Origin: Gonapodya sp. JEL0774 | Lineage: Eukaryota | Assembly: GCA_027604505.1 (NCBI GenBank) | Contig: JADIIX010000119.1 | Coordinates: 48,808 to 68,807 of the forward strand | Direction: 5' to 3' | Length of the DNA: 20,000 nt | The notes under the pieces: generated by a model | Told to the model about the DNA's origin: nothing | The model's input: only the letters and a program-made list of their open reading frames with translations | Databases searched by the model: none | In this document: positions 111-18,952 of the stretch, piece after piece | Layout: each line of letters begins with the position of its first letter | How positions within the stretch are numbered: the first letter of the stretch is position 1 | Made by a program: the position numbers and the translations under genes

Positions 111-1360
111 GGTTCCCAAGCGGGATCGGATCTCCTCCAGGTCCTCCCGCGTCTCCTTCCACCACTTTGCCTGCAGTCTCAACAACCACAGCCCCTCCTG
201 TTCCTCCCCCGACCTCCCCACGCCCGGCCACAACCACACCCTCCCCACCACCACCATCCGTCGTGCGAACATGCGATACCATCCACGCCGCGTACGTAAC
301 TGGAGGCGCGGCGGCGATGAAGGCGGGAGATTATGCGGACTGGACAGCATGGTGCGTAGGGAACCACTCAGGTGTTTGAGCCCACAGCGCGGCGGCTTAT
401 ACTCCACCTTGTTGTTTGCCACACCAGGTCGTGCAACACATGTGCGTGGTTTTGTTTATTCACTGTTGTGTTTCGAAATCGCACCACGGACCGGAGCCAC
501 TCACTGAAACACATCCCATATCCCACCTTCACAACTTACCTGAAATCGTGATACGTCCTACTTCCAGGGTTCCCATCCGGCATTGGAGCCCCCCCAACTA
601 CGTCCACATCCCTGCCTGCTCCTGCTCCGGCCACCACCACGACCCGCACCGCCACAACCACACCGCCTCCGCCTCCTTCTCCTTCCACGACCACTGCACG
701 CGCACCCACGACTACGACGGTAGCGGTGGTGCGAACATGCGACACCATCTACGCCGCGTACGTAGCAGGAGGCGCGGCGGCGATGTCGGCCGGAGATTAT
801 GCGGACTGGGCGGCGTGGTGAGTTTTGTGTGTTTGGAGAGGCAGGCCAACTGTCTTCGAATGAGGATGGGGGTAGAGGTGTGGTCGGAGACTGACCAAAC
901 CCGCTTTTTTGCGGATGTAAATCGTAGGTCATGCAACACATGTACGTCGTTCGAACCTCGTGTCGCATTAATCCCTCTCTCATTCTCTCTTATCACTGGG
1001 CCGTGTGGGTTGCAATCGGCATACTAAGGGTTCCCCTCCGGAATCGGCTCCCCACCACGCACAACAACAACAGTCGCCATTGTCAGGACGTGCGACAGTA
1101 TATACGCGAGCTACATTGCGGGTAGGCAGTTGACGGCGGCGGACTATGCCGATTGGGGAAGTTGGTGAGTGGTGCGAAACATTGTCCTCGCCGCAGTCCG
1201 CAGTCGTTTTCATACACGCTTGACATTCCTCCTTTCACAACACAGGAAGTGCAGCACTTGTGCGTATGCGTCCGGCGAGCACGCGTATCTCACGCACGAT
1301 GGGCTATGATATTCATCTCGTCTTGTTGAGCTAGGGTTTCCTCAAGGAATCGGCACCCCA
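111..1360 (+). repeat. Tandem ~40-aa protein module (3 complete copies plus the tail of a 4th) separated by Pro/Thr linkers
   Basis: Spliced copies read VRTCDTIHAAYVTGGAAAMKAGDYADWTAWSCNTWFPSGIG, VRTCDTIYAAYVAGGAAAMSAGDYADWAAWSCNTWFPSGIG and VRTCDSIYASYIAGRQLTAADYADWGSWKCSTWFPQGIG. Intron positions and phases are the same in each copy. Confidence 0.9.
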
Positions 1361-3388
1361 CCACCGACTACAACGATTCTCGCGTCCCTTCCACCTCCTC
1401 CTACCACGATCACGTGAGTCTCACAGAGCGCGCATGCATCGGCGCCCATTTTAAACTCATAATACTTGCATTTTTGCAATGCAAACCGCCAGCAGCGCCG
1501 CGGTGCCGTCCACATCCACAACGCCTGCCCAACTCCAAGGTAAAACGTCCACGACAACAGGCCCTCCTGCAACCACCACCGGCACCACATCCCAAAGCAA
1601 AACGGACACGGCCACGACCTCTACTCTCGCCGCCACCACTATCAGAACGACCTCGCAGACGGAAACGCAGCGAACGAGTGCAAGCACCCGCTCAACGTCC
1701 ACGCTGACCATGTCTTTTACCACCAGCCAGGCTGCCACCACGTCTCAAACCACAAGCAAAACCGCTACTGTCAGCACCACTTCCTCCACCTTGACAACGT
1801 CCCCCACTACCAGCCAAACACGCACGAGCACCAGCTCTTCATCCACGCTGACGACCTCCCTGACCACCAAAACGACTTCCTCGACGCCAACTACTTCCCG
1901 GACCACCAGTCGGACAGCCACCACCCCCTCCTCTTCCACAACAACCCGAACAACAACCCAAACCTCCTCAACCGCTTCAACAACCACCACCTCGCCACTC
2001 CCGACCTACTACTCCACGTCGCCCGGTATCGTCGGATACTATCCCAACTGGGCGCTCTACTCTCGCTCGGGTGTGCGCGCCATGAGTTTCTCTGGTCTCA
2101 ACTTCGTCCTGTACGCGTTCTGGCAGCCCAACGCCGACGGGACAATCTCGTCGCTCGACACGTGGGCCGACCTGCAGACCGGCGGCAACGGGATGATGCT
2201 TCAACTCAACACGGAGGTGAAGCCCCAATACCCCGGGATGAAGACCCTCCTTGCTGTTGGGGGGTACACGCTGTCAAGCAGATTCGCGGCAATCGCGGCC
2301 TCTAAAAGTTTGAGGGACGCATTTGCGGAGTCGTGTTTGAGTGCGGTCAAGACGTACGGGTTTGACGGGATTGATATCGATTGGGAATGTGAGTGTGTTT
2401 GTGCGTGATAGGATGTTGGCGGGACACAGTTCACCACCTTCTGCTCTGCTCATCCGCACACGGCCAGTCCCCGCATCCGCAACCGAGGCGAGCAACTTTG
2501 CACTCTTAGTTGCCGCACTGCGCTCTCGTCTCGGTACAAAGTACTACATCAGTCTCGCCATGAGCGTCAACCTCTCATTCTATGGAGCGTCCCTGTTGGA
2601 CATCACCAAGTGGGCTGACTTTGTGAACCTCATGACGTACGATTTCGGCGGACCCTGGGACACGTACACATCTCTCAACGCGCCGCTGTATCACGACACA
2701 GCTACCGACCCGAATGGGGATCGAGGCAACGTCGCAGGAGTGGTGAACGCGTATAAGAGTGCTGGAGTTGCAGCGTCCAAGATGACGGTTGGCGTTGCGC
2801 TTTATGGGCATTCGGTACGAGTAAATTGCGGTGTGCGTGGGTTTGTTTTTCAGTGACTGACTTGGTTGCTTTGCGTTCTCTTTTTTACAGTGGCGAACAA
2901 ATTCGATTTCTAACGGTGGACTGTACCAAACGTGTGCCCCACAGCCAGGAGGATCTCTCTCGGCGTGCATTTCCCCGCAGGGAGACTTCCTTGACACCGT
3001 GGCCCGTACGTAGATGAGGCTGTAGGGTCAAGAATCCAAAACTCACCGTTTTCTTTTCACCACTTTGCCGTTAGCTTACACGGGAGCGTGGACGTATCTC
3101 GGAATGCGAGGTGGCGGACTTCTAGACGGCCCAGACGTGGCAGGCGCAGGGTGGAACAGGACGTATAGAACCACCACCCGTGTTCCCACCTTGATCTCAT
3201 CCGCACCTGCAAATTCCACGTCGGGAAATTATACTTTTATTTCCTATGACGACCCAATTTCAGCTGGTGAAAAGGCGGCCTTTGCAAAGGGCGCAGGACT
3301 TGGTGGAGTGATGATGTGGGAGGTGACTGTGGACTACTCGTGGGAAATGGTTACAGCCATCGTCAAGGGCTTTGGCTTGTCTCTGTGA
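111..3388 (+). CDS. GH18 chitinase with N-terminal tandem Cys/Trp modules and long Thr/Ser/Pro linker (5' end outside window)
   Basis: Hand-spliced exons 111-351, 428-441, 568-817, 928-941, 1029-1164, 1246-1259, 1335-1413, 1493-2388, 2468-2814, 2891-3005 and 3075-3388, all GT-AG and in frame. GH18 motifs: VGYYPNW, LAVGGY, catalytic FDGIDIDWE|FP (DxxDxDxE intact), DFVNLMTYDF, GVALYGHS|W, ISYDDP, LGGVMMWE. Confidence 0.93.
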
Positions 3389-4950: not shown

Positions 4951-6196
4951 CTAATCAAATGTCCTACTGACCAAATCTGCTTCCTCATCATCCTCTGGAA
5001 CGCTTGCGATCCGCTGCAGATCTTCAAGTACATGTCTGTTCGCCCCTCGAGCCAACAAGTGCTCCACCACTTCTTCGTGCCAACGGCCGCGTGCATTGAC
5101 GAGCGCTTCGTCGTCACATGCATGAATATTGGCACCACGGTCCAACAAAAGTCGCACTGCGTCCAAGCTTCCACCCAGGGCTGACACGCGAAGTGCCTCA
5201 TCTTCTCCTGCGTGAATGTCCGCGCCCCGGTCGAAGAGGAGCTCGAGAACTCCAACGTGGCGACGCTGGGCGGCAATGACGAGCGGCTCTGCATTTGTGA
5301 TGTCGCCTGCTCCACGATCCAGCAGGAGCTGTGTCAAAGTGACGTTCCCTGTGACAGCGGCACTTGCAAGGACGGAACGAGCATGAAGGTTGGCTCCCCG
5401 GTTGATGAGACACTCAGCTACCTCACTCCGACCAAAACAGACGGCATTAAAGAGTACTACATCATTGTCGAGGTGAATGTCAGCTCCATTGTCCAAAAGC
5501 AGCTCCACAACCGCCACATGTCCGCACCTGGCTGCTCCTACTGTGGCCCTAAGGCCATTCTCATTGTTCAGATCAACGTCAGTCCCAGAGTCCAAGAGAA
5601 ACTTCACCATTTCGAGGCGACCCAGCCGTGCTGCTTCATAGAGAAGCTGCTCCGGGGAGACGTGACCGTTCCTACCCAGGTCCAGAAACAGTCGAACAAC
5701 TTCAATCCTTCCATCCTGTGCCGAAAACCGGAGTGCTTTGGCTTCCTCAAATTCGTCTAGCCCACCGTTGTCTAAGAGAAGCTCGACCACCTTCATATGG
5801 CCCGCTACAGCGGGCCAAATGGAGGGCGTTTGACCCCCGAGGGCTCACCCCTGCTCGTAATAGCACCTGAAGTACAGCCAGACGTCCATCCCGTGCCAAT
5901 CGAGAAATAAGTTTGACGAGCTTTGCCTCGGACTGAACGGATGATTTCTTCAGCAGGTACGTGACAACATCTGCTCTGTATTCCTCGCTCCTTCCAGCCT
6001 CGGCGATGAGCGCTGACATCCCCGAAGGGTAGCGCCGAAGAGCTCTCTCGGCTATTCCTTCAGGGAGAGAGAAGACCGCGTAGAGCATTCGGTTGAGGGT
6101 AGGGAGGCCCAAGCGGTGGGGGAGGAAGTGACCCATTGCCTGGAGGACTTCAGTAGGAAAACTTTGCAGCTGGAACGTGGAAACGCGATCCGACAT
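4951..6196 (-). pseudogene. Intronless F-box-like N-terminus + ankyrin-repeat protein, frameshifted (or sequencing error)
   Basis: N-terminus LQSFPTEVLQAMGHFL is F-box-like. About 9-10 ankyrin repeats follow (e.g. AARCGHVAVVELLLDNGADIH, AAQRRHVGVLELLFDRGADIH). ORFs 5747-6196 and 4951-5796 join as NALHLAAVAGHMKVVELLLDNG if one base of 5812-5814 is removed. Confidence 0.85.
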
Positions 6197-10721: not shown

Positions 10722-11843
10722 ATGGCGTCTTCATCCGCCGCCGCCGCCGCCGCCACCGCCGCTGACGAGAACCAGCCACCTCAGCGGAAGGAGCCTCGCT
10801 TCGTCCGAACCCTACAGCTCACACACAGCGCCTTCCTCTTCGCCCAGTCGATCCTCGCACCCCAAAATGCAGATTCGAACCTGGTCAGCCTCGCAAGTCT
10901 GATCAATAAACCGGAGGGATACGATCTTCAGGTCCTTGTGCACAATTTGAGCCGAACTCTGGCAACGGTGATAGAGTCTTGTTCCCGCAACCACAACATT
11001 CGAATTCTCCAGTTCGTGTTTTTCAAGCGTAAAAACATGCTACCCCGAGCCCCGGAATCAAATATTGAGCCCTGGGTAAAAGAGGTGACAACAAAACTGG
11101 CTGCAAACATCAATATTTTCCCGGGGCTGGTCATTGCGTTAGTCCCCTTCAAAGCAACTCTCCGAGCAATCCTTCGAGCGGCTGGCCATACAATACCCAA
11201 TACAGCGTCTTCAATGATAGAAATCGGAGGCTCTGGCGGCCCCGTCATTATGGAGGACACACTATGCTTGGTTGCAGCCCTCTGGACCAACAGGTCGGCC
11301 ATGTCGAGTGCATCCTCCCTCAAGGTTCTCAAAATCGAAGCATGTGGATTTCTTTGCTCATATGGCTGGCTTGCGCAAGCAGTGCGGGCCTGGTGGCGGT
11401 CCTCAGGGTCCAACTGTGACTATGTGCGAAACAGAAATGCTGTGATTCTGGTTTGGTCCAGACCTGGTCCCACGAATATTACAATAAGTGTGATAAAAGT
11501 GCACTCAACAAATCGACTTGACATTGGAGCAATATGAAATACTCCTGTCTGGAGCAATATGAAAACTGCAAGAAATCGTTTTGAGATTGCTCCAGGCTGG
11601 AGCAATATGAAAAATGCACTTTTTGACAAATCCTTCCAAGGGTCTCTATTCGACTCTATCCCACAGGCCATCTTGCTGAACCGACAGTGGCTGCTGACTG
11701 TAGATATCCCTCTGGGCGTAGAGTACGTTGAAGCGGAAGAAATCCGCCAGTTCGGCGGCCCAGCTAAGATTCTCATCTGGGACCCCTTCTGGAAAGTGGT
11801 TTATCTGCGTTCAGCAGGACCAGACAACACTTGTGGCAGATGA
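10722..11843 (+). CDS. Unknown globular domain ORF interrupted by a 144-nt repeat insertion; possibly the first exon(s) of the kinase-LRR gene
   Basis: ORFs 10650-11537 and 11559-11843 are in the same frame. The only stop between them (11535-11537) lies within the inserted repeat 11487-11630. Likely start is MASSSAAAAAA at 10722. No family recognised. Confidence 0.55.
11487..11631 (+). repeat. Dispersed single unit of the CTGGAGCAATATGAAA repeat family
   Basis: Near-identical to sequence at 16988-17065 and 16857-16976. Contains the hairpin attgctccag-g-ctggagcaat (11586-11606). Confidence 0.9.
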
Positions 11844-11866: not shown

Positions 11867-14800
11867 TGCTGGGCACTCTCGAGAGAAGCCTTCCCGACGA
11901 GCATCGGTATGTTGTTGGAGACACCGACCCGTTTGGGGTGGGCCTCAGCAAGCTGTGGTCACAAACACACTCTCCCGGTAGAATCCCCAACCACCAATTT
12001 CATCCTCGATGCTCATGTCCGCTGACTCCCCCAGCTCTCCTCCTGTGGAAAACGCGGTCGATGGGTCACCTCACCCCCATGATGATGCCACAGAACGGAC
12101 TCTTGACCCGCCGACCACTCCACATGTGCCTCCATTCACGCTTGCGGAACTAGAGAATCGCTGTGGGATGGGTATTTCTGAATTCCTGAACGCCGTCGCC
12201 ATGTCTGGCGACAATGGCCCCCTGAAAGTGAGCAATGTCTGCAGCTGTTTACCATTCAAAATCCTGAGTGACTGTGGTTCTAATTGCATAGCTAGCCAAA
12301 TGGCTCATAGATGAACGTGGCATATTTCAAGTACTGGATGGGCCAGGTGCGTCAAGGCTACTAGAACTTCTTGCCGTCGACCATCACAAAGCCAGTACTC
12401 TGTACTCTCATTCCGACCAAGCGTGTCTTGCTCTAACACTCAATCATCCTGATAGACCATGGCAGAATGCGTTTCTCGAACAGCGCCTCTCGTAGATATA
12501 CCAACAACGCCACCAACACATGTTCAGATGTCAACCGCAAAGAAACCAGATTGGGAGATCCCACCTGGAGAAGTGGAGTATGCGGAGAAAAAGGTACTCG
12601 GCAAAGGAGGATACGGTTCAGTATGCGAAGGCGTGTACAGGAAGCAGACTCCTGTGGCAGTCAAGAAAGTTGCAATCTCTGGGACCTATTTGCTGGAGGT
12701 CTGTGTTAGTGCCTCACAGCATGGTCATGTTTTGTTGTTTTTAAATTGAGTTTGCTCCAGGACTATCGGAACGAAGTTGAAGTGTGGTACAGGCTTCGAC
12801 ACCCCAATGTTCTGCAGCTCCTTGGAGTCATCCTAGACAGTGATCATGTCCTTTTCATATCTCCTCTGATGTCCAAAGGAGATTGCGCGAACTATTTGAC
12901 ATCATTTTCCGATGGAAATGAGCGTCAATGTAAAGCCGTTGCCTTGGTATGTTGTGGTTGAGGCAATGCGCTCGGGTTGCGTTTAAACTCACAGTCGAAC
13001 ACAGCTTCGAGATATTGCCATTGGGATGGACGCTCTTCACGCCAAAGGCGTCGTTCATACAGACCTTAAACCTGCTAATGTTCTCGTGAATGATTTGGGT
13101 ATTGGTGTCATCACAGATTTTGGCTTTGCAAAGAACTCGCCACTTGACGACAATGACCTTCTAGTGACCGGATCAGGGAAACTTAGGGTTGAAGCCACAA
13201 AAATCCCATACCATACGTTGTTCCGTATGCCAAACTCACAGGAGCGTCCAGGGACTGCTTTCTACATGCCACCAGAACGCCTAGAACGACGGGGCACAAC
13301 TAAGCAAGGCGATGTTTATGCATTTGGAATCATGATTGTCACGGTGAGTGAGACGGCAATCGATTACGGGTGAGCGAGCTCTAAAGTTACCCCTTCTTGC
13401 TGCGCCAGATGTGGACAGATGAAACAGCCTACCCAGTGTCATCCACGGGAATATTTGATGATATTTGCTTCAAAAACCTCAGGCCAAGTATCCCAGACGA
13501 TATGCCCGAAGAGCTGGTGTCACTCATGAAAAGTTGCTGGGATGAAGATCCATCAAAGCGACCTAACTTCACCCAGATTGCAGAGACGATGAAGAGCATT
13601 GCGTTGGTAGTTCTGAGTAATTGTCGGCAGAAACGGCACACACTGATCTGCATCTATAGGAATCAGATCAGCGACCTTCTGGGACAACATCTGGCCCGTC
13701 TTTACTTTGTACAGAATCCTTCCGAACATACAATGAAAATGCAAGGTAAAGCCTCAGTACCACAGTTTTGAGTGCTGTGTTTTAAAAGGAGTTTTTCTCT
13801 AGACGGACAATTCCAAAGACTGAGGTTCGAGTACTTGCCAGAAGTACTCAAGACCAACACTGTGCTGACGAGTCTGAATCTTTACGGTGAGTGTCGTGAA
13901 TGTGTGTTTGCAAGCCCGAATCAAGGTCACATGGTCCCTCTTGCCACTGGTGCCACTGGTCCCGCCAAATGAACAGACAACAAGATTGGAGCTGACGGTG
14001 CCAAGGCACTGGCCGAGGCGCTCAAGAACAACACTGCTCTGACGAGTTTGGACCTGGGTGGTGAGTGTCGAGAATGTGTGTTTGCAAGCCTGAATCAAGG
14101 TCACATGGTCCCGCGAAATGAACAGACAACGAGATTGGTGCTAACGGTGCCAAGGCGCTGGCCGAGGCGCTCAAGACCAACACTGCGCTGACGAGTTTGA
14201 ACCTGGGTGGTGAGTGTCGTGAATGTGTGTTTGCAAGCCCGAGGCAAATTCACACGGTCTCTCTTGCCACTGGTGCCACTGGTGCCACGAAATGAACAGT
14301 CAACAAGACTGGCGCTGACGGTGCTACGGCGCTGGCCGAGGCGCTCAAGACCAACACTGCGCTGACGAGTCTTGACCTGACCAGTGAGTGTCGTGAATGT
14401 GTGTTTGCAAGCCCGAATCAAGGTCACATGGTCCCTCTTGCCACTGGTGCCACTGGTCCCGNNNNNNNNNNNNNNNNNNNNNNNNNNNNNNNNNNNNNNN
14501 NNNNNNNNNNNNNNNNNNNNNNNNNNNNNNNNNNNNNNNNNNNNNNNNNNNNNNNNNNCCGCGAAATGAACAGGGAACGGGATTGACGCTGACAGTGCCA
14601 AAGCACTGGCCGAGGCGCTCAAGACCAACACTGCGCTGACGAGTCTTAACCTGTCATGTGAGTGTCGTGAATGTGTGTATGCAAGCCCGAATCAAGGTCA
14701 CATGGTTTGTCTTGCCTCTGGTGCCACTGATCCCACGAAATGAACAGTCAACAGTATTGGCGCTGACGGTGCGAAGGCGCTGGCCGAGGCACTCAAGACC

Positions 14801-16387
14801 AACACTGCGCTAACGAGTCTGAATCTTTACGGTGAGTGTCGTGAATGTATGTTTGCAAGGCCGAATCAAGGTCACATTGTCCCTCTTGCCACTGTTGCCA
14901 CTGGTCCCGCGAAATGAACAGGGAACAAGATTGAAGATGACGGTGCCAAGGCGCTGACCGAGGTGCTCAAGACCAACACTGCGCTGACAACTTTGAATCT
15001 GCAATGTGAGTGTCGTGAATGTGTGTTTGCAAGGCCGAATCAAGGTCACATGGTCCCTCTTGCCACTGGTGCCCCTGGTCCCGCGAAATGAACAGATAAC
15101 GCGATTGGTTCTGACGGTGCCAAGGCGCTGGCCGAGGCGCTCAAGACCAACACTGCGCTGACAACTTTGAATGTGCAATGTGAGTGTCGTGAATGTGTGT
15201 TTGCAAGCCTGAATCAAGGTCACATGGTCCCTCTTGCCACTGGTGCCCCTGGTCCCGCAAAATGAACAGATAACGCGATTGGTTCTGACGGTGCCAAGGC
15301 GCTGGCCGAGGCGCTCAAGATCAACACTGTGCTGACGAGTCTCAATCTCGCAGGTGAGTGTCGTGAATGTGTGTTTGCAAGGCCGAATCAAGGTCACATG
15401 GTCCCTCTTGCCACTGGTGCCCCTGGTCCCGTGAAATGAACAGCCAACGCGATTGGTTCTGACGGTGCCAAGGCACTGGCCGAGGCACTCAAGACCAACA
15501 CTGCGTTAACGAGTCTGAATCTTTACGGTGAGTGTCGTGAATGTGTGTTTGCAAGCCTGAATCAAGGTCACATGGTCTCTCTTGCCACTGGTCCCCCTGG
15601 TCCCGCGAAATGAACAGATAACGCGATTGGTTCTGACGGTGCCAAGGCGCTGGCCGATGCGCTCAAGACCAACACTGTGCTGACGAGTCTGAATCTCGCA
15701 GGTGAGTGTCGTGAATGTGTGTTTGCAAGGCCGAATCAAGGTCACATGGTCCCTCTTGCCACTGGTCCCCCTGGTCCCGCGAAATGAACAGGGAACAAGA
15801 TTGAAGATGACGGTGCCAAGGCACTGGCCCAGGCACTCAAGACCAACACTGCGCTAACGAGTCTGAATCTTTACGGTGAGTGTCGTGAATGTGTGTTTGC
15901 AAGCCTGAATCAAGGTCACATGGTCCCTCTTGCCACTGGTGCCACTGGTCCCGCGAAATGAACAGGGAACAAGATTGAAGATGACGGTGCCAAGGCGCTG
16001 GCCGAGGCGCTCAAGACCAACACCGCACTGACAATTTTGAATCTGCAATGTGAGTGTCGTGAATGTGTGTTTGCAAGCCCGAATCAAGGTCATATGGTCC
16101 CTCTTGCCACTGGTGCCCCTGGTCCCGCGAAATGAACAGATAACGCGATTGGTTCTGACGGTGCCAAGGCGCTGGCCGAGGCGCTCAAGACCAACACTGT
16201 GCTGACGAGTCTGAATCTCGCAGGTGAGTGTCGTGAATGTGTGTATGCAAGCCCGAATCAAGGTCACATGGTCCCTCTTGCCACTGGTGCCACTTGTCCC
16301 GCGAAATGAGCAGGGAACGAGATTGGTGCTGACGGTGCCAAGGCACTCAAAGACCTTGCAAATTCCAGCTGTGCAATTAATCTGTGA
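11867..16387 (+). CDS. TKL-type (non-RD) protein kinase fused to C-terminal RI-like/NLRC3-like 28-aa LRR array
   Basis: Kinase exons ~12466-12698, 12761-12946, 13005-13343 and 13409-13602 carry LGKGGYGSV, VAVK, EVEVW..LRHPNVL, HTDLKPANVL, DFG, GTAFYMPPE, DVYAFG and CW..DP..RP. Linker exon 13660-13745, then fourteen visible 84-nt LRR exons from 13803 to 16223 (e.g. NKIGADGAKALAEALKNNTALTSLDLG) and terminal exon 16314-16387. Upstream exons 11867-11906, 12035-12227 and 12292-12347 are tentative. Confidence 0.9.
13803..16350 (+). repeat. 174-bp tandem array = 84-nt LRR exon + 90-nt intron
   Basis: Exons start at 13803, 13977, 14126, 14300, [gap], 14574, 14748, 14922, 15096, 15270, 15444, 15618, 15792, 15966, 16140 and 16314. 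Every intron begins gtgagtgtcg and ends aaatgaacag (last one aaatgagcag). Confidence 0.97.
14462..14558. other. Assembly gap (97 N) inside the LRR array
   Basis: Run of N flanked on both sides by the same intron position (...tggtcccg / ccgcgaaatgaacag). Confidence 0.99.
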
Positions 16388-16854: not shown

Positions 16855-17115
16855 TGAAATACTCCTGGCTGGAGCAATATGAAAACTGCAAGAAATCATT
16901 TTGAGATTGCTCCAGGCTGGAGCAGTATGAAGTATTCCTGTCTGGAGCAATATGAAAAATGCACTTTTTGACAAATGATGATATTTTAGTGTGATAAAAG
17001 TGCACTCAACAAATCGACTTGAAATTGGAGCAATATGAAATACTCCTGGCTGGAGCAATATGAAAAATGCACTTCTTGATGAATGATGATATTCAAGTGT
17101 GATAAATGTGCACTC
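16855..17115 (+). repeat. Complex AT-rich tandem repeat with TGGAGCAATATGAAA sub-repeats and hairpin
   Basis: Five copies of (c/t)tggagca(a/g)tatgaa, two copies of tgatgatatt..agtgtgataaa.gtgcactca, and the inverted repeat tgctccag-g-ctggagca. Confidence 0.85.
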
Positions 17116-17301
17116 ATCCGTCTTGAAACGTTGAGTTGAATCAATGTTGCACTTTTGATTGATCTCAAATTGATTAAATCATTGCAATATGACATGCATT
17201 ATATCTTCATCTATCAAAAGTGCACCTTTTCACTTAAAATCACGCATGGTGCAAAAATAACACACACCGTTTTTCAGCTGACCTGTACTCTCATTCCCAC
17301 A

Positions 17302-17635
17302 TTTTGTTCACTTTTGTTTGTTTATTCTACTCATCTCTCTGTCGATATCTTCATCTATCAATACTGCTCTGTTTCAAATCTTCTTCACTTCAAGTCATCC
17401 ATAGTGCAAAAAATAAGACTCCCCATTTTTCAGCAAAGCTGGAATCGCTTTCCCGGGTTTTGTTCATTTTTGTTTGTTTATTCTACTCATCTCTCTGTCG
17501 ATATCTTCATCTATCAATACTTCTCTGTTTCAAATCTTGTTGACTTCAACTCATCCATAGTGCAAAAAGTAAGACTCCCCGTTTTTCAGCAAAGCTGTAA
17601 TCGCTTTCCCGGGTTTTGTTCACTTTTGTTTGTTT
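17302..17635 (+). repeat. 156-bp direct tandem repeat (2 full units + partial third)
   Basis: Units start at 17302, 17458 and 17614 (ttttgttca.ttttgtttgttt...cgctttcccggg) and differ by few substitutions. Confidence 0.95.
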
Positions 17636-17679
17636 GCACTAATGGTCCATATAAACCTAGTGGAGAGTCCTCCACCTTA

Positions 17680-18952
17680 ATGCCAAAACAATCACAGCCT
17701 CAGAGAAAGGAGGCCAGACAACAATGGGAGAAGGCCAAAAAACTGGACCAAACCACAGTCGCACCAACAAAGGAATCTACAACCTCAGTCAGTTGAAAGA
17801 TTTGAACGGAAGAGAACCCAGATGACCGTTTGCTCCAAGCATTAAAAGAACTACTTTGTAAATATGAAGACCTCACAAAACAGGAGCAAGCAAAAAGGGA
17901 ACAATTATTAAAACGAGAGCAAGCGAACACGTAACAATTATTAAAGCAGGAACAAGCAAAAAGGGAACTATTGTTAAAACAGGAGCAAGCGAAAAGTGAA
18001 CAATTCGAACGATAGATTGGAATTCGAGAAAAAACAATAGAAGGAGATATAAAAACACAGCTTCAACGTTTTTGGGATGCCAATATTATAGCGTTTCCAA
18101 TATCAATCTACTATGATAAATTCACACGTCGCATTTGCGGAAATGAACCTACAATCGATGAGTTGTACGATCTCACAATCGACAGCACGAAACAGATGGA
18201 TATTTCAGGTTCTCAAGGAGTTGGAGTAATAACAGGACCAACATCCGAAATATTCATGCTCAAAGTTTTGGATATGGTGTGGTGGACAAAGCTCTTGACA
18301 AGAAGGAAATATACAATCCCAATGACTGCCACGTCACGAAGTGATGATGGTCTCTACACCTATTATTTCAGAACAAACGATTAGACACCTTATTTGAGAC
18401 GTGACCTTCAATTATTTGACAAAATTGCCCAAACCAGTCCGTATTGGAGAGTTGTCCTTGCACCTCCATCCTATGGTGTTGTGTCAGATATGTTTGAAAT
18501 AAAGGACCAAAAATGGTTACCTGGTCGAACGATACAGGATGGGATATCACCCCCCCCTCAATGGTTGTTACAAGCAGTTCACATTCATGAAGACAAATTG
18601 GAAGATGAGGAAGAACATATAAAACTCCGAATGTACAGAAATGTCTGAGGAACATCATAGAGTAGAGCACGATGTAATGAGGAAATTTGGTTTGCTATGT
18701 TGCTAAGATGAAATTGATGAGTCTGATCATAGAGCATATCATATCAGACTGAGGAAAAGTCGAGACACTATTCACTGCTGCGATTATAAGTTTGAAGAAG
18801 ATATTGCTGCTGACGATAAACAAAACCCCATCATGGTAAATGATACTGACAAGGGAGGAGAAGTAACTGAAAGCAAGGACCACGCAGTACAGATACAAGG
18901 TGAAGTATCATCAGGAGTACACGATGAAGGATCCGCTACTAGGGGTGTGTGA
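17680..18952 (+). pseudogene. Decayed intronless AT-rich ORF with 11-aa coiled-coil repeat; unknown family (possible mobile/viral cargo)
   Basis: One frame from ATG 17680 runs through ORFs 18163 and 18394 with isolated stops at 17794, 17803, 17932, 18013, 18382 and 18646. A 33-nt repeat QEQAKREQLLK occurs about 3.7 times at 17881-18003. An acidic tail continues in another frame to 18952. Confidence 0.65.

Follow-up and report, generated by a model that had tools for sequence, protein, structure and literature searches.

The window analysed here, a stretch of 20,000 nucleotides (nt) of contig JADIIX010000119.1 from the early-diverging fungus Gonapodya sp. JEL0774, holds on its plus strand a predicted gene in which a protein kinase is followed by at least 15 leucine-rich repeats (LRRs), each on its own small exon. 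The repeats form a 174-nt tandem array at about 13850-16350, and a parse of the window on splice motifs bore out the proposal of an earlier sequence-only reading (hereafter the initial annotation) that each LRR is one 84-nt exon between phase-1 introns. Thirteen internal LRR exons of exactly 84 nt span 13977-16223 (starts at 13977, 14126, 14300, 14574, 14748, 14922, 15096, 15270, 15444, 15618, 15792, 15966 and 16140) and, together with 14 introns, make up the stretch of 174-nt units at 13887-16313. These introns are all GT..AG and all phase 1; 12 measure 90 nt, one measures 65 nt and one runs across an assembly gap of 97 N (14462-14558). The first 84-nt LRR exon (13803-13886) resembles the other units in its 3' half alone, its 5' half being divergent, and the last exon (74 nt, 16314-16387) consists of half a repeat, a short cap and a stop codon ending at 16387.

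Stop-free 84-nt exons flanked by AG and GT and carrying an LRR motif occur 19 times on the plus strand, always inside the array (14 true exons and five shifted parses), but neither on the minus strand nor in 200 shuffled windows. Since every 90-nt intron (12/12) would bring an in-frame stop if retained, a long protein requires splicing, and a 58-residue unspliced repeat was rejected on the same ground. Long minus-strand open frames over the array were likewise rejected as shadows of the repeats, the plus frame being the one with the LRR motif and with purifying selection, and the intron was not retained as a candidate mobile element, as it occupies a single position within the window. In the 65-nt intron (14061-14125), a deletion has removed 25 nt lying between two copies of a 7-base repeat and has spared both splice sites. 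A metagenome scan with a 17-nt intron motif returned 70 loci, none of which (0/70) resembled the unit or the repeat by BLAST, and these were considered chance matches. In unit coordinates, the two flanks of the assembly gap, which the initial annotation had overlooked, have 3 nt in common; the number of whole units lost in the gap may therefore be zero or higher, and 15 repeat exons is a minimum.

The motif LxxLxLxxN of ribonuclease inhibitor-like (RI-like) LRRs was found in 13/13 units. When three of the 13 units were scanned individually, LRR_6 was matched with E-values of 0.001-0.02, below the curated cut-off because units were scanned one at a time, and the repeat profile matched 27 solved sequences of RI-type proteins. 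The best solved-structure matches include dynein regulatory complex subunit 5, LRRC34 and tropomodulin, as could be expected of a structural or housekeeping (flagellar or actin-related) LRR protein; however, the repeats of these three proteins are divergent, unlike those of the array.

Upstream of the array, four kinase exons (12466-12698, 12761-12946, 13005-13343 and 13409-13602) are identical to those of P0001, named by its source as a partial hypothetical protein of Gonapodya sp., the kinase part of which is identical to that of the window; Pfam recognizes them as Pkinase (8e-45) and PK_Tyr_Ser-Thr (2e-44). An 86-nt linker exon (13660-13745), possibly a degenerate repeat from a likeness judged by eye, lies in frame between kinase and LRRs in our model. 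Two possible first exons (12009-12227 and 12292-12346) show an open frame in the model, the annotated P0001 beginning further downstream; they are uncertain, as are the start codon and the acceptor of intron 2. A Pfam scan gave no match in these first two exons or in the linker exon. Once spliced, the seven exons upstream of the array and the array itself form a single open frame that encodes 853 residues and runs from the kinase to the stop codon, and the kinase thus stands in frame upstream of the repeats, as had been proposed. The termination of P0001 after the kinase would fit repeats that are not joined to it at all. Yet P0001 is marked partial, has no stop codon and ends at the very donor predicted by the model, and the introns between kinase and repeats have canonical splice sites and keep the frame. 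We therefore regard a structural protein, or an array unconnected to the kinase, as extremely improbable.

The kinase has complete catalytic motifs (Gly loop, VAVK, HxD, DFG and an APE-like motif), with HTD replacing HRD, which makes it non-RD. Its closest solved structures are the Src/Abl, EGFR and RIPK1 kinases. From Pfam, structure and motif matches, rather than from a tree, we infer that it is tyrosine kinase-like (TKL-like). Within the exon at 13005-13343, the activation segment bears an insertion of approximately 20 residues relative to P0006, and a 65-nt stretch in this insertion ends in an acceptor-like sequence without a GT donor. Homologue searches gave one match among 1103 candidates for the kinase exon, five among 4763 for the whole kinase and two among 26 for the repeat, which is weak evidence on paralogues. 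The five longer kinase relatives all come from Gonapodya, are 35-38% identical, non-RD and associated with other domains, and an LRR domain is listed in none of them (0/5).

As to its class, the predicted protein departs from the layout of LRR receptor-like kinases, since the kinase precedes the LRRs and no membrane helix is present. Indeed, no 19-residue window exceeds a hydropathy of 1.6 (maximum 1.39), so that the product would be an intracellular sensor. No Pfam match to NACHT or NB-ARC was obtained in the kinase, the first two exons, the linker or the first LRR exon, and the 853-residue model leaves no room for either domain, which sets the gene apart from the NLR/STAND class. The Roc-COR tandem that serves as the criterion for ROCO proteins was found neither in the gene model nor in the Pfam scan.

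The units were then compared with each other, repeat positions being numbered from the conserved Asn. Mean pairwise nucleotide identity reaches 0.934 in introns (range 0.867-0.989, n=12) and 0.910 in the exon core (codons 6-23, n=13), against 0.706 in the first 17 nt and 0.607 in the last 13 nt of the exon (n=13). Introns and core, initially described as almost invariant, are thus highly alike but still differ by about 7-9%, and no two exons or introns are identical (maximum 98.8% and 98.9%, respectively). Over whole units, the repeats share on average 79% of protein and 82% of DNA positions, with a mean column identity of 86%, values that lie on either side of the 85% taken as a criterion for NWD-type repeats. 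All the edge variants reported beforehand were recovered (8/8 3' ends and 7/7 5' ends). Six residues are seen at position 27 among 13 exons, five at position 2, and three at each of positions 4 and 5; the codon for position 28, whose splitting by the intron had gone unnoticed, encodes six different residues at the 13 gap-free junctions. Combining the eight 3' ends with the nine 5' ends would yield 72 junction patches, all of them stop-free (72/72), and 11 are present. On the two sides of the same donor, synonymous diversity is high in the exon, with no such diversity in the intron.

A structural model of P0016, a related protein used as a stand-in for that of the window (single-sequence model, mean pLDDT 61, repeats mostly 70-89), places a strand at positions 23-27, a loop at 28-3 and a helix at 4-17. 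In this model of a related repeat, positions 27, 28 and 2 would form the end of the strand and the following loop. The strand-and-loop face of RI-type LRRs binds ligands. The initial location of the variable codons on the concave face is thus consistent with the model for positions 27, 28 and 2 but not for positions 4-5, which fall at the start of the helix.

The units are mosaic and the array has recombined. Informative sites that are neighbours are more compatible than sites further apart, both within exons (p=0.0006; 23 sites in 13 exons) and across introns (p=0.0002; 26 sites in 12 units), and when two 5' types and two 3' types are distinguished, all four combinations are seen, within exons as well as across introns. 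Similarity between units is flat along the array (19.3 differences at distance 1, 15.8 at distance 6). Recombination through the conserved introns had been proposed; recombination itself is confirmed, but breakpoints also lie in the exon core, indicating that the exon is not the sole unit of exchange.

The mosaic order or the similarity of units could also stem from the assembly, through chimeric paths or merged haplotypes, and the 97-N gap within the array is in line with such a defect. Nevertheless, the lack of identical exons or introns and the limited length of exact internal repeats (106 nt at most, with only five pairs of at least 70 nt) make a collapsed consensus unlikely, even if they leave room for a chimeric order, and the same layout recurs in independent assemblies (loci L075 and L077, described below). 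We hold an artefact to be very improbable.

Another candidate is a programmed diversifier that would produce many isoforms per individual through exon skipping or somatic rearrangement, as was proposed for brown-algal ROCO genes. Every exon skip would preserve the frame, donors and acceptors are all near-identical, and the possible junction patches are free of stops; besides, the accessible parts of two articles report LRR exon skipping in brown-algal ROCO genes (PMC11378527) and in human NLRP3 (PMC6642158). Conversely, breakpoints inside exons are not expected from splicing, and no recombinase gene was recognized in the window. In addition, orphan and inverted exons lie within introns at Ectocarpus ROCO loci, whereas no orphan or inverted LRR cassette was detected on either strand of the 20-kb window, the gap being unseen. 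Such a programme therefore appears improbable.

To place the array among similar ones, one repeat was searched against 1.84 billion representatives, which matched 2787 proteins, and the best 150 were examined. Forty-five of these 150, known as proteins only, contain six or more 28-residue units in a row, with an internal identity of 65% or higher, and served as the comparison set. Variability in these arrays is highest at positions 28, 27, 25, 2 and 5, in this order (rank correlation of 0.69 with the window), the same positions being variable on average over all 45 arrays (45/45). Likewise, an array without introns from a bacterial bin, known from two overlapping pieces of one contig (L072 and L074), has a pN (non-synonymous differences per site) of 0.65-0.66 at positions 27, 28, 2 and 5 versus 0.23-0.25 in the core. 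Variation thus follows the protein surface rather than the splice sites: the initial link between variability and exon borders does not hold, and a mechanism aimed at splice sites was rejected.

Among these best 150 proteins, NACHT was carried by nine of the 40 scanned and a kinase by at least six of the 150, the kinase-first order being found only in P0086. The same 28-residue repeat is present in Mortierella alpina (P0010, P0016 and P0163), in Dissophora (P0019) and in P0086, where a kinase precedes the LRRs. Three of 20 proteins looked up by name belong to Mortierellaceae, P0163 being a fourth, and the consensus of P0016, P0163 and P0019 is 81-86% like that of the window at fixed positions. 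In P0011 and P0065, the same repeat is followed by a kinase. P0011, which also has a SidE phosphodiesterase domain, would seem to come from an intracellular bacterium, which raises the question of repeat transfer between hosts and symbionts.

Selection was assessed by counting and by codon site models. By counting, the ratio of pN to pS (synonymous differences per site) is 0.30 in the repeat core and 0.15 at buried positions; the core is under purifying selection. Site models that did not include the split codon point to positive selection; the positions concerned are 2, 5 and 27 with one tree (M1a-M2a, p=4e-4; M8a-M8, p=7e-5; omega 4.0), and 2 and 27 when each half of the repeat is given its own tree (p=0.03 and 0.008; omega 3.7). 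None of 81 null simulations reached the observed M1a-M2a statistic of 7.26. For positions 2 and 27, these results are suggestive of positive selection even when the main breakpoint is taken into account.

Taken together, we favour, with a probability of about 0.6, an intracellular kinase-LRR gene acting as a variable sensor, whose array has grown by copying of exon plus intron and has recombined, and in which a few surface residues are likely kept diverse. The array would grow by the copying of one exon and one intron as a unit. Unequal crossing-over or gene conversion would then land on the intron and on the helix-coding exon core, both conserved, splitting and recombining the two halves of a variable patch that straddles the intron, and the codon split by this intron could take new residues after recombination. 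From knowledge of the family, we infer that the patch (strand end and following loop) would bind a ligand or a modified self protein, the kinase transmitting the signal. A role in non-self sensing would be the most likely function.

Several observations weigh against this interpretation. The evidence comes from the genomic DNA of one assembly, in which splicing is predicted and ongoing change putative; the annotated P0001 stops short of the repeats, and the gap inside the array hides the true number of repeats. All five longer kinase relatives, for which no LRR domain is listed, are non-RD as well, so that this motif does not point to immunity in the present gene. Variable sites amount to 25/81 in introns and 7/12 among four-fold sites of the core, and the greater uniformity of introns is not significant (p=0.10). 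Besides, the codon models were run with our own code on 13-14 short sequences and leave out multi-base changes and further breakpoints, which are known inflators of such tests. Surface positions are variable in nearly any LRR array, so that relaxed constraint could give the same pattern, and the six most variable codons, when pooled, have a pN/pS of 0.96 by counting. At the 3' edge (codons 24-27), pS even exceeds pN (0.69 versus 0.26), which partly agrees with a refutation named in the initial annotation, edge codons no more variable than intron or synonymous sites.

These last values, together with the variation of other arrays at the same positions, are what a young tandem expansion free of diversifying selection would produce, with recent and converting copies and merely unconstrained surface positions. 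Against such an expansion, neutrality is rejected by the site models. Sites free of constraint would also be expected to vary as intron sites do, yet the latter show 0.32 minimum changes per site compared with 3, 2, 2 and 2 for the last four exon bases and 3 and 2 for the first two. Moreover, intron bases 7-17, which adjoin the most variable codon, are invariant in 12/12 90-nt introns (p=0.012, in a test chosen after the data were seen, the 65-nt intron differing at one of these bases). We thus see a purely neutral expansion as unlikely, albeit to be reckoned with, and retain the variable sensor as the preferred reading.

The closest mechanism to that of such a sensor would be concerted evolution combined with diversifying selection, as in the NWD repeats of Podospora. 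Indeed, according to the accessible text of three studies (PMC1805685, PMC4986451 and PMC13449251), this combination with few selected codons is established for fungal NWD and related repeats, and Podospora NWD/HNWD and other fungal NLRs have, like the window, near-identical repeats, unequal crossing-over or conversion, and few selected surface codons. Recombination among repeats, as required of NWD-type repeats, was found in the array, and the positive selection at a few codons that is likewise required is suggested by the site models, the counting method being neutral. However, these fungal NLRs associate WD40, ANK or TPR repeats with a NACHT or NB-ARC core, whereas the gene in the window has one LRR per exon, a kinase and no NTPase domain. 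In the part of Dyrka et al. that was available, no LRR types are found among such fungal NLRs.

In terms of construction, the shuffling receptors of Ectocarpus likewise have one repeat per symmetric exon, recombined repeats and positive selection on the concave face. Brown-algal repeats are nonetheless encoded by 72-nt exons of 24 residues (phase 2 in ROCO genes), in contrast to the 84-nt phase-1 exons and short look-alike introns of the window, and the 12 LRR-kinase loci described in brown algae as having repeat exons showed no shuffling. Human NOD/NLRC proteins are NACHT proteins, unlike the product of this kinase-LRR gene; their repeats and introns have diverged, and their exon border lies about two codons earlier than in the window. 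They also have RI-type repeats, with one 28-residue repeat per frame-preserving exon and a fixed border in the strand, as far as the accessible text goes (PMC6642158).

A further comparison is with the intracellular LRR-kinase genes of chytrids, which similarly join LRRs and a kinase in zoosporic fungi and for which a sensing role was proposed (PMC2939053, PMC13618815). In the accessible portions of these two articles, LRR receptors are reported to be almost missing in fungi, Batrachochytrium having four LRR-kinase genes (PMC2939053), and high-copy LRR-kinase groups occur in another chytrid genome (PMC13618815); the same portions describe no repeat-per-exon layout, homogenized introns or selection, and do not state the repeat class. 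For secreted proteins of gall midges, the available part of PMC2955719 reports introns that resemble each other more than the coding regions do, and the available parts of PMC12258605, PMC8778642, PMC3268121 and PMC10197012 contain nothing on this layout. No description of a one-exon-per-LRR kinase layout in fungi was found in the literature, subscription journals lying mostly outside the search. Each ingredient is thus known, and the design itself is known from brown algae and animals, but their combination in a fungus was not found described. The gene would work like an NWD-type variable sensor, with a construction similar to that of the repeat domain of NOD/NLRC or ROCO proteins, while belonging to none of these families.

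The layout is nevertheless found elsewhere. In two of 22 loci from prokaryote bins (L075 and L077), repeats are spaced by 154-161 nt and carried by 17 exons of 84 nt with GT..AG introns, the phase and codon position being those of the window. Identity is 78% in their introns, 83% in the core and 59% at the 3' edge; the introns measure 70-77 nt and have no similarity to that of the window, and the cores of the two loci are as alike between genes as within each gene. From their sequences, both look like a misbinned eukaryote unrelated to the window. Their LRR genes span 131-2078 in L077 and 1197-1911 in L075, with 214 of 240 aligned bases alike in the 3' flanks; Sel1 repeats stand upstream in L075, in place of the kinase, and one intron of L077, 199 nt long, seems to have been broken up by an insertion. 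The shared cassette position would be one widespread design if early-diverging fungi possessed a whole class of intracellular LRR-kinase immune receptors, with an old common cassette, a patch cut by the intron and junctional diversity within an individual, recombination or exon skipping making new junction residues. We consider this broader proposal distinctly unlikely.

The gene is flanked by two copies, in the same orientation, of a short element with internal inverted repeats: one upstream (11487-11631, 96% match to 16855-17071) and a longer one downstream (16855-17128). These direct copies could allow duplication or loss of the whole gene. Directly upstream of the kinase and on the same strand lies an open frame of 271 codons (10722-11537) with no Pfam match. 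Further away, the window contains a GH18 chitinase gene (about 260-3388, plus strand) with a long Thr/Ser-rich linker and short upstream repeats, noticed by eye, that may be LysM-like, and an ankyrin-repeat gene (4951-5844, minus strand; Pfam Ank_2, 8e-40). On the other side, GC content drops to 36-42% at 17201-18694, a region with tandem repeats of 156 nt and 33 nt, and an open frame at 18016-18384 has a weak, below-cut-off Pfam match (TraU).

According to the accessible text of surveys, LRR pattern receptors are missing in fungi, whose sensors are of the WD40, ANK and TPR types instead (PMC2939053, PMC4986451). If our interpretation is true, a recombining and selected LRR array attached to a fungal kinase would add LRRs, in a zoosporic lineage, to the repeats with which fungi sense non-self. 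The halt of the public annotation after the kinase illustrates why such genes are missed. Finally, with its short and distinguishable units, this array would offer a small testable model of the way in which the diversity of a binding patch is maintained by conversion tracts and selection.

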